Shown here in pieces: positions 225-24,556 of a DNA stretch of 29,474 bases. The translations under genes were made by a program, and so were the position numbers. The stretch's first letter is position 1. The number at the start of each line of letters is the position of its first letter. This stretch comes from Gammaproteobacteria bacterium (GTDB lineage Bacteria; Pseudomonadota; Gammaproteobacteria; GCA-001735895). The stretch covers positions 1 to 29,474 of the forward strand of contig JBNKUM010000072.1 in the NCBI GenBank assembly GCA_050298595.1, in the 5' to 3' direction. A model generated the notes under the pieces. It was given only the letters and a program-made list of their open reading frames with translations, was not told the DNA's origin and did not search any database.

Positions 225-478
225 AGCAGTGAATTCTACCAGGCCCGTAGCGAGGGGGGGGGTAGCCGATTATCAGGGAATTGGAAAAGCTTCCCCCCCC
301 CCCATACCATAGCAGTAATACCTGCGCCAGGCAGGTGCCGGCTGATTAAAAATACAGCCAGTGAACCGACTCCCCAGGCTAACATAAAATCAATTTGAAT
401 AACTTCTCTTATTGAGCAGAAGACGAAGTTCTGCTCATGAGGCTGGGCGTTTTAGTTTTCGATATTTTAAAAAACCAG

Positions 479-786
479 GGCCTGTTAACACTAATTTAAT
501 TACCACTGCTGGAGACCATTTTTTCTTCCAGCAAGGCAGAAGGAGTGCTGTGTAGTCATTCTACATAAGCGACTGATAACGCCGCTGGAGGGAAAATGGT
601 CCCAGCCCTTCGGGTTGAGGTTTAAAATCGCCACTCGTTGTTGCCTACATGGACGTAGGTAAGGAGCGTGAGCAGGAGTGGAAGCTTTGCTCGTCGCTCA
701 TTTGGAGTGACCAAACCACGCTTCTCGCGCCTAGATTGGCGGTTTTTAAACCTCAACAGTGGTAATTAAATTAGTGTTAACAGGCC
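479..786. mobile_element. MITE-like non-autonomous element, about 308 bp, with perfect terminal inverted repeats
   Basis: 477-508 AGGGCCTGTTAACACTAATTTAATTACCACTG is the exact reverse complement of 757-788 (32 bp including flank bases). Flanks CCAG (475-478) and CTAG (787-790) look like a near-duplicated target. No ORF of 60 aa or more inside. Internal inverted repeats at 508-532/584-606 and 614-633/737-757. Confidence 0.85.
641..686 (+). other. 46-bp twin-hairpin insert with GGA loops nested in the MITE
   Basis: TTGC is duplicated at 641-644 and 687-690. Hairpin TTGCCTAC-ATGGAC-GTAGGTAA is followed by a weaker hairpin around GCAGGAGT. Removing the insert restores an ungapped alignment between the two internal arms of the MITE. 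Confidence 0.7.
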
Positions 787-2301
787 CTAGGGCGTCATCT
801 GTTGAATTTTTTGCTTCCATAAAGCAGGACCTGTCTGATGCACCGAAGTACCCTGACTATCGACTGCCACGGTAACCGGCATATCGCTCACCTCAAATTC
901 ATAGATAGCTTCCATACCCAGCTCCTCGAAAGCGATAACACGTGCCGACTTAATAGCTTTGGAAACCAGATAAGCCGCGCCACCCACAGCCATCAGATAA
1001 GCCGCCTTGTGTTGCTTGATAGATTCTATAGCAACAAGTCCACGTTCTGCCTTACCTACCATACCAATGAGCCCTGTTTTTGAAAGCATCATATCGGTGA
1101 ACTTATCCATACGTGTCGATGTAGTCGGTCCGGCAGGCCCAACGGCTTCATCGCGTACCGGATCAACCGGCCCCACGTAGTAAATCAGTTTATTGGTGAA
1201 ATCAACGCCCTCGGGCAGACCCTGACCTGATTCCAGTAGCTCCTGAATACGCTTATGCGCAGCATCTCGACCAGTTAATAACTTGCCGTTTAATAACAGA
1301 CGATCTCCCGGCTGCCAGCTTTGTACTTCTTCAGGCGTCAAGGTATCTAGATTGACACGTTTAGATTCCTCGCTGATTTCCCAGGTGACTTGTGGCCAGT
1401 CCTCAAGTTTAGGTGGAGTGAGTACGGCCGGACCAGTTCCATCCAGAGTAAACTCTATATGTCGGGTAGCCGCGCAGTTGGGGATCATCGCAACAGGCAA
1501 GGAAGCGGCATGAGTCGGATATTCGGCAATCTTCACATCTACAACAGTTGTTAATCCCCCCAGGCCCTGTGCGCCGATTCCTAAAGCATTCACCTTCTCG
1601 TAGATTTCCAGGCGCAGGCGTTCACTAGCCGTTTTGGCCCCCCTATCATATAAATCCTGAATATCCACTGGCCCCATTAACGATTCTTTCGCTAATAACA
1701 TGGCCTTTTCGGCTGTGCCACCAATGCCTATACCCAGAATACCTGGTGGGCACCAGCCAGCCCCCATAGTCGGTAGTGTATTAACGACCCAGTCCACAAG
1801 GCTATCGCTTGGATTCAGAATGGTAAACTTAGATTTATTTTCTGAACCACCACCCTTGGCAGCCAGTGCAATTTCCAGATGATCACCGGGTACAATCTCG
1901 GTATACAGAATTGCCGGGGTATTGTCTTTGGTATTCATACGAGCGCCAATAGGTGGAGACACCATAGATGCACGTAATTTATTATCTGGATTCATATAGG
2001 CTTCACGAACCCCCTGATCAACCATCTGTTGCAGACTCATATCGCTCTGCCACTGAATATTCATACCGACCTTCATAAACACTACAACTGCCCCCGTATC
2101 CTGACAGATAGGCCGGTGCCCTTCGGCACACATGCGAGAATTGGTCAGGATTTGTGCGAGTGCATCTTTCGCCGCAGGTGATTCTTCTTTCTCCCAGGCA
2201 CGCCCAACTGCCTGGATATAATCCAGCGGATGATAATAAGAGATAAACTGCAATGCATCAGCAATGCTAGAAATAAGGTCGTCTTGCTTAATAATCGTCA
2301 T
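787..2301 (-). CDS. fumA: Class I (Fe-S) fumarate hydratase
   Basis: Motifs PICQDTG, KGGGSEN, GWCPPG, GRDAAH and GPTTSTRM. ATG at 2301 (MTIIKQDD) preferred over the GTG at 2310. Confidence 0.93.
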   Translation of the reverse strand: MTIIKQDDLISSIADALQFISYYHPLDYIQAVGRAWEKEESPAAKDALAQILTNSRMCAEGHRPICQDTGAVVVFMKVGMNIQWQSDMSLQQMVDQGVREAYMNPDNKLRASMVSPPIGARMNTKDNTPAILYTEIVPGDHLEIALAAKGGGSENKSKFTILNPSDSLVDWVVNTLPTMGAGWCPPGILGIGIGGTAEKAMLLAKESLMGPVDIQDLYDRGAKTASERLRLEIYEKVNALGIGAQGLGGLTTVVDVKIAEYPTHAASLPVAMIPNCAATRHIEFTLDGTGPAVLTPPKLEDWPQVTWEISEESKRVNLDTLTPEEVQSWQPGDRLLLNGKLLTGRDAAHKRIQELLESGQGLPEGVDFTNKLIYYVGPVDPVRDEAVGPAGPTTSTRMDKFTDMMLSKTGLIGMVGKAERGLVAIESIKQHKAAYLMAVGGAAYLVSKAIKSARVIAFEELGMEAIYEFEVSDMPVTVAVDSQGTSVHQTGPALWKQKIQQMTP

Positions 2302-22910: not shown

Positions 22911-22951
22911 GCGTACAGTGTGCAAACTGTCAAAATATCCAGGAGAAAATC

Positions 22952-23419
22952 ATGCCTGCTGTAGAAATCGGCAAAAAAGTTAAGAATTTTTCGCGCCCAG
23001 CCACCTCAGACAAAACCATTAGCCTAAATAGCCTGAAGGGCAAAAATCTGGTTCTGTATTTTTACCCTAAAGACAGTACCCCCGGTTGTACTACCGAAGG
23101 CCAGAATTTCCGTGATCTTTATGCCGATTTTCAGAAAGCCAACACCGAAATCCTTGGTGTTTCTCGAGACAGCCTGAAACGTCATGAAAACTTCAAGGCG
23201 AAACAGGAGTTCCCTTTCGAACTACTATCGGATGAAGATGAATCTCTATGCCAGCAGTTTGACGTGATAAAACTGAAAAAGTTGTATGGTCGTGAATATA
23301 TGGGCATAGATCGCAGCACTTTCCTGATCAATGCCGAAGGCAAACTGGTACAGGAATGGCGCAAGGTAAAAGTCAAAGGGCATGCCGAAGAAGTACTAGC
23401 CGCAGCCCAGGCACTATAG
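22952..23419 (+). CDS. bcp: Peroxiredoxin Bcp
   Basis: LYFYPKDSTPGCTTE, ILGVSRD and RSTFLI motifs; AGGAG RBS. Confidence 0.93.
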   Translation: MPAVEIGKKVKNFSRPATSDKTISLNSLKGKNLVLYFYPKDSTPGCTTEGQNFRDLYADFQKANTEILGVSRDSLKRHENFKAKQEFPFELLSDEDESLCQQFDVIKLKKLYGREYMGIDRSTFLINAEGKLVQEWRKVKVKGHAEEVLAAAQAL

Positions 23420-23444
23420 ATTTACTTTCAACAATAAAAACATC

Positions 23445-23623
23445 TTAACCACAGATTAGGGCTAGGATGCCCGTAATTAGAGCAACGCAGGAGCAGTTGC
23501 CGAGCGCACAGAGAACACGGAGGTTATAAAGCTTTCTTTTGACTCGAGAAGGATGATCAGGTAATAAAACTGAGTAAACAGACTATCTTTCCTCTCTGTG
23601 CCCTCTGTGTTCTCTGTGGTTAA
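23445..23623. repeat. Inverted-repeat (MITE/REPIN-like) element with 9-bp periodic CACAGAG arms, between convergent bcp and cysB
   Basis: Right arm 23594-23623 CTCTGTG-CC-CTCTGTG-TT-CTCTGTG-GTTAA. Left arm TTAAC-CACAGA[48-bp insert]G-CG-CACAGAG-AA-CACGGAG (23445-23522). TTAA at both outer ends. Confidence 0.75.
23456..23503 (+). other. 48-bp twin-hairpin insert with GGA loops interrupting the left arm of the repeat element
   Basis: Hairpins GGGC-TAGGAT-GCCC and GCAAC-GC-AGGA-GC-A-GTTGC, with GA duplicated at the junctions. Removal restores the arm periodicity. Confidence 0.7.
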
Positions 23624-23638
23624 ATTCTTTTAATGTAA

Positions 23639-24556
23639 TCAGTCTTTTAACAGGCTGAGAGCATTATCTCCCACGCCGTTTTGTAGCAGATCGATAAATT
23701 GCTGTTCGTATCGGCGCAGGTAGCGATCTTTCATATAAGCTATGCGAGTAACTTCCCAGGGAAATAACTGACTCAGATCGCGCGCCTGCAAGCCCTGATC
23801 CTTAGTCTCCGAATAGGCAAAGCTAACGATAATGCCCACGCCAAAACCTTCACGTACATAGGTTTTTATCACATCGGTATCGGCCGCGCTCAATACGATG
23901 CGCGGTTTCAACCCCAGACGTGCAAAACTTTTCTTAAAATGGCCGGCTCCGGTAAACCCGGATACATAGGTAATCAGCGGATACTCGCACAGATGCTCAT
24001 GGGTTAAAGGGTTCTGGTTCAGCACAGCATGCCCATCGGGCGCGATCAGACTACGGTTCCAGCGATAACAATGTATAGAATCAAGCAAGGCATCATCACC
24101 AAGTGCTTCGGTACAGATGATACAATCGACCTGATCTTTTTTTATCATTTCAATCAACTGCCTGGGGCTACCCTGATGTAACTGTACCTCGACCTCAGGA
24201 TAACGCTGGCGAAAGCTACGTAACACAGGCGGCAGCATATAACAGGCCTGGGTGTGTGTCGTCCCCAGTCTGAGCACACCTTTACTGTCCTCTACAAAGT
24301 CTCGCCCGATAGCCTGAATATTTGAGGTATCAGACAGTGCCTTACGTGCATAAAACAGTACCTGATTACCCGCTTCGGTAAATCCAGTTAAGCGTCGTCC
24401 CTGACGATTGAAGATCACAACGCCTAACTCATCCTCCAGTTTCGACATGTGCTGAGACACCGCCGACTGCACCAGATGTAACTGAGATGCTGCCTCGGTG
24501 ACATTGAATCCAGTTTCAGCGAGTGCTACCAGCGAGCGTAATTGTCGTAACTCCAT
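23639..24556 (-). CDS. cysB: CysB/Cbl-family LysR transcriptional regulator
   Basis: N-terminal LysR HTH, LGTTHTQA and DTDVIKTYV motifs typical of CysB/Cbl; divergent from cysJIH. Confidence 0.85.
   Translation of the reverse strand: MELRQLRSLVALAETGFNVTEAASQLHLVQSAVSQHMSKLEDELGVVIFNRQGRRLTGFTEAGNQVLFYARKALSDTSNIQAIGRDFVEDSKGVLRLGTTHTQACYMLPPVLRSFRQRYPEVEVQLHQGSPRQLIEMIKKDQVDCIICTEALGDDALLDSIHCYRWNRSLIAPDGHAVLNQNPLTHEHLCEYPLITYVSGFTGAGHFKKSFARLGLKPRIVLSAADTDVIKTYVREGFGVGIIVSFAYSETKDQGLQARDLSQLFPWEVTRIAYMKDRYLRRYEQQFIDLLQNGVGDNALSLLKD

Follow-up and report, generated by a model that had tools for sequence, protein, structure and literature searches.

Very small twin-hairpin repeats with invariant GGA loops, very probably mobile, inside larger palindromic repeats of a gammaproteobacterial genome

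We analysed a stretch of gammaproteobacterial DNA of 29,474 nucleotides, referred to here as the window, in which the gap between two convergent genes is filled by a palindromic repeat, host element 2, whose left arm is interrupted by a 48-nt unit made up of two hairpins. The features of this locus are the following.

22952..23419, plus strand: AhpC/TSA (bcp-like) peroxiredoxin gene, 155 aa; the unit downstream lies in sense and starts 36 nt past the stop
23445..23623, no strand assigned: host element 2, a palindromic MITE-like repeat with arms of 9-nt repeats; left arm 23445-23455 plus 23504-23522, right arm 23592-23623
23456..23503, plus strand: twin-hairpin unit, 48 nt, an exact insertion in the left arm of host element 2; covariance model R1 matches 23454-23506 with 38.2 bits
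23459..23472, plus strand: core of hairpin A, a 4-bp stem and a 6-nt loop with GGA; the MFE fold lengthens the stem to 23454-23478
23482..23500, plus strand: hairpin B, a 7-bp stem with one bulge and a 4-nt GGA-bearing loop; the preceding 4 nt are TTAG, where most family members have GTAG
23639..24556, minus strand: LysR-type regulator gene, convergent; the intergenic gap is filled by host element 2

It had been claimed in an earlier note on this DNA that positions 23456-23503 are an insertion, placed in sense 36 nt after the bcp stop. The coordinates agree with this position, and removal of the 48 nt yields a left arm that mirrors the right arm (23592-23623), in which a period-9 repeat runs from 23594 to 23618. 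By RNA folding, host element 2 minus the unit forms a single long hairpin (-51.1 kcal/mol), and the unit forms two separate hairpins, both with a GGA-containing loop (-17.3 kcal/mol; z -2.16, a stability matched by 6 of 200 shuffles). Empty versions of the locus also exist. Sequencing run X2, from the study to which the probable source sample also belongs, contains a contig (depth 45), ascribed to a co-occurring strain, that lacks the unit: it matches the 3' end of bcp to position 23424, continues with 31 other letters and resumes at 23502, which gives an uninterrupted left arm. Contigs identical to the window have depths of 119-126. At the orthologous locus of the congener G432, which is 88% identical, the host element occupies the same place, inverted and without the unit. 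These observations bear out that the 48 nt were inserted. In G432 the intergenic site lies at about 42500-42670 of contig C7, and the centre of the palindromic host element there is inverted relative to window positions 23445-23623. If transcription extends so far, the unit would lie within the 3' UTR of bcp; the RNA run X16 covers only 22951-23143, i.e. the 5' part of bcp, and stops short of this region. Neither an intrinsic terminator nor a promoter of the GacA/UvrY-dependent type (judged by the box consensus) was seen at 23300-23750, and the unit at this locus is most likely a neutral passenger.

A second insert is found in the window at mid-position in host element 1, a repeat unrelated to host element 2.

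477..788, no strand assigned: host element 1, MITE-like, about 310 bp long, its terminal inverted repeats (32 nt each) at 477-508 and 757-788
641..686, plus strand: twin-hairpin unit, 46 nt, second subtype, with a junction ambiguous by up to 4 nt; R1 matches 640-691 with 30.5 bits

When seven copies of host element 1 were aligned, one was empty at exactly this point, four carried one unit and two carried two; one copy bears a different unit at a second site. Copies on contigs C41, C17 and C49 of the window's genome (G000) have, elsewhere in the repeat, another optional insert of 17 nt whose sequence is unrelated to the units. That the inserts at 641-686 and 23456-23503 are kin had been proposed from the two copies themselves. 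The covariance model R1 was built from 40 diverse units, most of them from other genomes, none from the window and none of the 23456 subtype. In the 29.5-kb window it gave 38.2 bits (E 6e-9) and 30.5 bits (E 7e-7) for the two inserts, and the next match reached 7.7 bits (E 1). Since a model trained without either insert ranks both best, they belong to one family beyond chance.

Many more members are present in the window's genome, which as searched comprises 5.49 Mb in 119 contigs. BLAST with short words, using either insert as query, returned many matches across the genome, including head-to-tail runs with a period of 46-47 nt. Iterated nhmmer gave 174 matches on 56 of the 119 contigs, 123 of them near full length, which resolve into 99 single units, 25 runs of two, seven runs of three and one run of four; with R1, at least 135 matches were obtained at E<=0.01 (150 of 2119 candidates scored). 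The family, which had been put forward as structure-conserved elements that enter other palindromic repeats, has thus grown from two copies to at least 135 to 174 in this genome, with units of 46-48 nt.

The earlier observation that the stems differ in sequence yet still pair also holds for the wider family. In the alignment of 40 units, 71.7% of cells are paired compared with 63.6% in shuffles, and the covariation score is 0.252 compared with 0.102 in shuffles, none of 500 of which reach 0.252; with the partners slid, the score is at most 0.076. Both sides have changed in six of the eight pairs of hairpin A, and in the stems of both hairpins Watson-Crick pairs or tandem G-A mismatches occupy the same positions. 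Counts of G.T and A.C in hairpin A (79 each) are uninformative because the loop-closing A/C column dominates them. Invariant across the 40 units are the GGA in both loops, the two GGAs being about 25 nt apart, and the GC pairs closing the second loop. The GGA that had been singled out as conserved in the two inserts therefore stands, but the GTAA and GAGC named beside it vary across the family. Most units have GTAG ahead of hairpin B; the unit at 23456-23503 has TTAG and that at 641-686 a different linker, and no comparable foot precedes hairpin A. When 214 units of mixed subtype were aligned with MAFFT and folded with RNAalifold, hardly any consensus emerged (2 pairs, -0.26), the subtypes being misaligned with one another; the curated 40-row alignment was used instead. 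A loose scan for GGA-loop hairpins showed no enrichment (16884 compared with 19106 in shuffles, and 411 compared with 416 for twins), whereas GGA-loop hairpins with stems of at least 7 bp were enriched (228 compared with 113). A scan for GGA density was dominated by a long GGA-rich run of 6-nt repeats at G000:C81:1742-2106, Gly/Asp-rich in one frame, which is unrelated to the units.

The units have exact boundaries. In other genomes, 72 distinct flank pairs were compared: an A precedes the unit in 64 of them, a G follows it in 57, and the commonest junction is CA/GGA, where the slash marks the point of insertion. In the window's genome one subtype lies in CA/GG(G)A and another in GGA/G or GGA/T; in runs, unit end joins unit start. 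Flanks that pair with one another over at least 5 bp, i.e. insertions into hairpin loops, were found in 12 of 87 cases compared with 18 of 507 shifted controls. Units have often landed in the GGA loop of another unit, so that nests two and three deep are visible, and precise excision in silico brought back an unbroken unit spanning the junction in at least 7 of 122 cases. A control with mis-registered excision was discarded, as tandem runs restore a unit at any offset. A search for a longer 'master' element between half-units found none, and only nested units lie there.

Filled and empty versions were found in paralogues, in orthologues and in one gene. In Ectopseudomonas mendocina a unit lies within a REP-like hairpin between two genes, and the congener G426 (81% identity over this locus) has the same intergenic hairpin without the unit, with one adjacent base as the only other difference. 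The genic case is pglX, the BREX-1 methyltransferase gene, of Moellerella and Salmonella plasmids, in which the unit forms exactly 48 extra nt, in frame, and adds about 16 residues to the protein (17 residues are read through). The copies of pglX with an in-frame unit are given in the next line.

pglX with in-frame unit: Moellerella plasmid NZ_CP093250, L152:2501-2549; also NZ_CP133280; E. coli chromosomes NZ_CP047461 and NZ_CP047455

The pglX genes of E. coli plasmids, about 79% identical, lack the unit. Only 2 of 5426 complete E. coli genomes carry a unit, in both cases in pglX, and the E. coli copy was therefore probably acquired in another host. A further 48-nt unit, at about C14:58840-58890 in the window's genome (region G000:C14:58000-59800, L016), lies inside an IS66 tnpB-like frame, which appears to be broken by it through a frame shift and an in-frame stop. 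In all four empty-site comparisons the junction is ambiguous by 1-4 nt, and a target duplication of 1-2 nt therefore looks the same as none. Taking these insertions together with the family's structure, we consider it very likely that the unit is a mobile double-hairpin micro-element.

Much of the copy number, on the other hand, arises by riding in larger repeats. Counted by eye, about 18 host-2-type arms are without a unit and nine have one, always after the first 9-mer, and nested composites turn up repeatedly as complete blocks. In one Shewanella genome the 23 copies apparently share one larger repeat context, as judged from four loci inspected in three Shewanella genomes. Another MITE-like repeat, about 500 bp long and bounded by conserved terminal inverted repeats, has a variable run of one to four units on one strand and a loop insert on the other; its copies are given here.

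About-500-bp MITE-like repeat: L001, L002 and L007 (G000:C8, C56 and C114); the same element in another assembly, MAG loci L057, L100, L105 and L141

Because many copies share one position of one host family, independent insertions must be far fewer than copies. It could be argued from this that the units have no mobility of their own and are optional modules of larger repeats, spread by hitch-hiking, gene conversion and replication slippage. The fixed position after the first 9-mer, the single context of the inspected Shewanella copies, the variation of run length between one and four and the recurrence of composites as blocks all fit such an explanation. However, a unit with the same ends occurs in unrelated contexts: the two hosts in the window, a Pseudomonas-type REP, a coding gene, the IS66 tnpB-like frame and heterogeneous hairpin-loop hosts that share only CA/GG. 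Moreover, four cases in which only the unit was gained, at non-homologous sites among close relatives, have already been seen. We therefore regard a complete lack of own mobility as very improbable.

The distribution of the units is patchy and extends across the class. A 19-letter core was found in at least 119 stretches of a collection of species-representative genomes, in about 92 assemblies by hand count among the matches listed. To judge from their titles, the carriers among these listed matches are Gammaproteobacteria, except for one Flavobacteriales MAG. They include the Pseudomonas mendocina and stutzeri groups, Shewanella, Marinobacterium, Marinomonas, Endozoicomonas, Pseudoalteromonas and Paraglaciecola, as well as Thiohalomonas, Thiohalophilus, Sedimenticola, a tubeworm endosymbiont, Methylococcaceae and Chromatiales. 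Among 401 evenly sampled Gammaproteobacteria genomes, 10 contain the exact 19-mer, and the reversed control gave 0 everywhere; there are 29 copies in the window's genome and 1-9 in the other sampled carriers. The 19-mer is absent from G152 and G319, which belong to the same family but another genus, and among 12 congeners searched with the unit-bearing arm the matches, counted by eye, numbered from none listed up to about 13. No match to the unit was present in phage records. The patchy spread of a sequence that hardly varies suggests that the units move horizontally and that a conserved factor recognises them.

This bears on a second alternative, in which the units arise through replication errors at hairpins, by template switching at microhomologies of 1-4 nt, and no dedicated enzyme takes part. 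The ambiguity of 1-4 nt at every junction and the enrichment of landing sites in hairpin loops are what such errors might leave behind. However, identical ends are found in distant genera and in targets that are not hairpins, and the same 48 nt recur across the class with hardly a change; protein recognition accounts for this better than random switching does. Template switching is thus, in our opinion, unlikely.

On balance, we favour the interpretation that the unit is a non-autonomous, REP-like double-hairpin mobile repeat of 46-48 nt, which is moved in trans and has spread mainly inside larger repeats. According to this model, the unit would be a direct doublet of two REP-like hairpins with GC-closed loops and invariant GGA, non-coding and dependent on a machinery supplied in trans. 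It would insert with exact, reproducible ends beside an A, most often at CA/GG or GGA/G, and would often land in hairpin loops; its own loops would then give rise to nested copies and its own 3' end to head-to-tail runs. After entry into a genome, multiplication would proceed mainly by riding on larger host repeats. Single-strand 'peel and paste' transposition is the route of the IS200/IS605 and REP/RAYT systems, and the unit may likewise move as single-stranded DNA through an enzyme that recognises hairpins. It resembles this route in three ways: a same-strand hairpin at either end, insertion next to a short sequence similar to the unit's own 3' end, and a preference for loops. We offer this single-strand, trans-mobilised mechanism only tentatively, as a possibility that is less likely than not.

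The window's genome has an unusually large number of Y1_Tnp (IS200/RAYT-like) matches, 26; many are interrupted by internal stops, and several have open frames of about 290 aa. A Y1_Tnp match lies within 1 kb of a unit at only 1 of the 23 places checked, and that unit merely sits inside a REP-like hairpin; no GGA-loop hairpins flank the nine intact Y1 genes; and Y1_Tnp was found in 8 of 10 unit-bearing genomes but is absent from the Shewanella genome with 23 copies. A link between Y1/RAYT proteins and the units is thus unsupported by adjacency, by flanking hairpins and by co-occurrence. Replication-strand bias as judged by GC skew was likewise absent (44 compared with 47 loci), though strand tests, whether against transcription or GC skew, have little weight when, as here, larger repeats carry most of the copies along.

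The invariant GGA in both loops also raises the question of whether the units bind CsrA. The earlier note had put forward a dispersed family of Csr/Rsm sites as one reading, and in its fuller form this reading holds that the units are dispersed CsrA/RsmA-binding modules which, when transcribed, titrate or recruit CsrA through two or three GGA loops, and that the family has been kept and spread for post-transcriptional regulation. The conservation of both GGAs in the 40 units and their spacing of about 25 nt would be consistent with this idea. The loop words also fit the CsrA loop motif and the CsrB repeat. Furthermore, the named carriers among the matches listed are Gammaproteobacteria but for one, and the best sub-threshold match of the RsmY model is a nested unit array (C44:2760-2838), although its 18.5 bits are far below the cut-off of 57. 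The co-occurrence with csrA that had been suggested as a check gave a divided answer: the window's genome has two csrA genes, but one unit-bearing genome, 94% complete, is without a CsrA match. Strand bias relative to transcription, a further suggested check, was not seen, with 38 units in sense and 43 antisense in tandem intergenic regions, and comparison with the Rfam models (CsrB, RsmY and RsmZ among them) gave no match at the gathering threshold or at E<=10. Units are also found inside coding sequence. In addition, the invariant GGA is equally well explained by recognition through the mobilising machinery, because GGA loops are the preferred landing sites too. As originally worded, the claim of a dispersed Csr/Rsm site family is not supported, and we consider it quite unlikely that the units are CsrA-binding modules; in appearance they are closer to selfish mobile DNA than to an established regulatory site.

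A separate candidate for a Csr/Rsm sponge sRNA gene was noticed on the minus strand of G000:C115 at about 142590-142834. It has a GacA/UvrY-box-like palindrome followed about 70 nt downstream by a -10 box, and the putative RNA of roughly 170 nt contains at least seven A(N)GGA motifs and ends in an intrinsic terminator with a GGA loop. The Rfam CsrB, RsmZ and RsmY models do not match it. This Rsm-like candidate contains no units, which also counts against the proposal that the units serve as CsrA-binding modules.

Elements of this general kind are already known, namely REP/REPIN/BIME, SDR, DHE and RPE, and our Rfam comparison and our literature searches with words and sequence strings found no description of a gammaproteobacterial twin-hairpin family; in a 2024 MITE review the words 'nested', 'hairpin' and 'CsrA' are absent. 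Compared with MITEs, which have terminal inverted repeats and a target-site duplication of fixed length, the ends of the unit share at most about 4 nt of inverted similarity, and the junctions, with their ambiguity of 1-4 nt, show no duplication of fixed length. IS200/IS605 elements and their miniature derivatives are closer in that the unit has a hairpin near each end on the same strand, apparently inserts beside a short conserved sequence (1-3 nt) with no clear target duplication (1-2 nt being possible) and has a 3' end that resembles its target, which would explain the head-to-tail runs and the self-nesting. It differs from them in that no cognate transposase was found and in that no strand bias was seen, the latter by a weak test since the copies are mostly passengers. 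To our knowledge, at about 48 nt the unit is also far smaller than any element of the IS200/IS605 type. The small dispersed repeats (SDR) of Nostoc and its relatives, which Elhai et al. reportedly described in 2008, are said to be very small mobile repeats of 21-27 nt that insert into one another. As described, they are like the units in their very small size and mutual insertion, but are shorter and cyanobacterial.

The units resemble REP/REPIN/BIME with RAYT in being short, GC-rich imperfect hairpins, present in high copy and mostly extragenic. REP sequences follow a formula of GTRG (5' GTAG or GTGG) and then an imperfect GC-rich palindrome, as given in Table I of PMC4690160, and by that table hairpin B with its GTAG foot and palindrome corresponds to it in most copies. 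The tandem GA mismatches in the stems are shared with REPs as well, and units insert into and adjoin REP-like hairpins. In contrast to a REPIN, in which two inverted REPs form one long hairpin, the two hairpins of the unit are direct and fold separately. Unlike REPs, which are lineage-specific, the units are nearly identical in sequence across distant genera and show nesting within their own loops. We found no RAYT gene beside them, and two carriers are without Y1_Tnp, which sets them apart from RAYT-linked REPs.

Two further systems share some properties with the units. The double-hairpin elements (DHE) of fungal mitochondrial DNA (Paquin et al. 2000, as summarised in PMC2800124) are mobile, consist of two hairpins over tens of nucleotides, lie between and inside genes, are retained in transcripts and have no flanking duplications. 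According to that summary the size, the mobility, the two hairpins, the intergenic and genic locations and the lack of flanking duplications are common to both, but DHE are mitochondrial and have no sequence relation to the units, and the summary does not mention invariant GGA loops or nesting in loops. Rickettsia palindromic elements (RPE), as portrayed in PMC10969869, are about 150 bp, mostly intragenic and enter protein-coding genes in frame. They resemble the units in being palindromic and in the in-frame entry seen in pglX, whereas the units are 48 nt and lie mostly inside other repeats. As regards CsrB, RsmY and RsmZ, the repetition of GGA in hairpin loops is shared, but the units are dispersed, lie on either strand, are mobile and have no Rfam match.

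If our favoured interpretation of the unit as a REP-like mobile repeat is correct, it would, at 48 nt, be among the smallest bacterial elements with exact, reproducible ends. The occurrence of nearly the same sequence in genomes of the Pseudomonas group, Shewanella, Marinobacterium, Endozoicomonas, sulfur oxidisers and symbionts points to a widely shared recognising factor. Landing in GGA loops, including the unit's own, would produce fractal repeat mosaics that complicate assembly and annotation and give rise to spurious ORFs; a protein can also gain 16 residues, as the BREX methyltransferase has. A more far-reaching version, which we think has little chance of being right, is that the units are horizontally spreading, self-nesting CsrA/RsmA-binding cassettes, whose GGA loops would serve as landing pads and, once transcribed, as high-affinity CsrA sites. 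In that event insertions would rewire how Csr/Rsm controls the genes next to them, bcp in the present case, and new sponge RNAs might arise from nested or tandem arrays. With the units one could test cleanly whether CsrA sites can be spread by mobile DNA, and they offer, more generally, a concrete and testable system for the movement of very small hairpin repeats.
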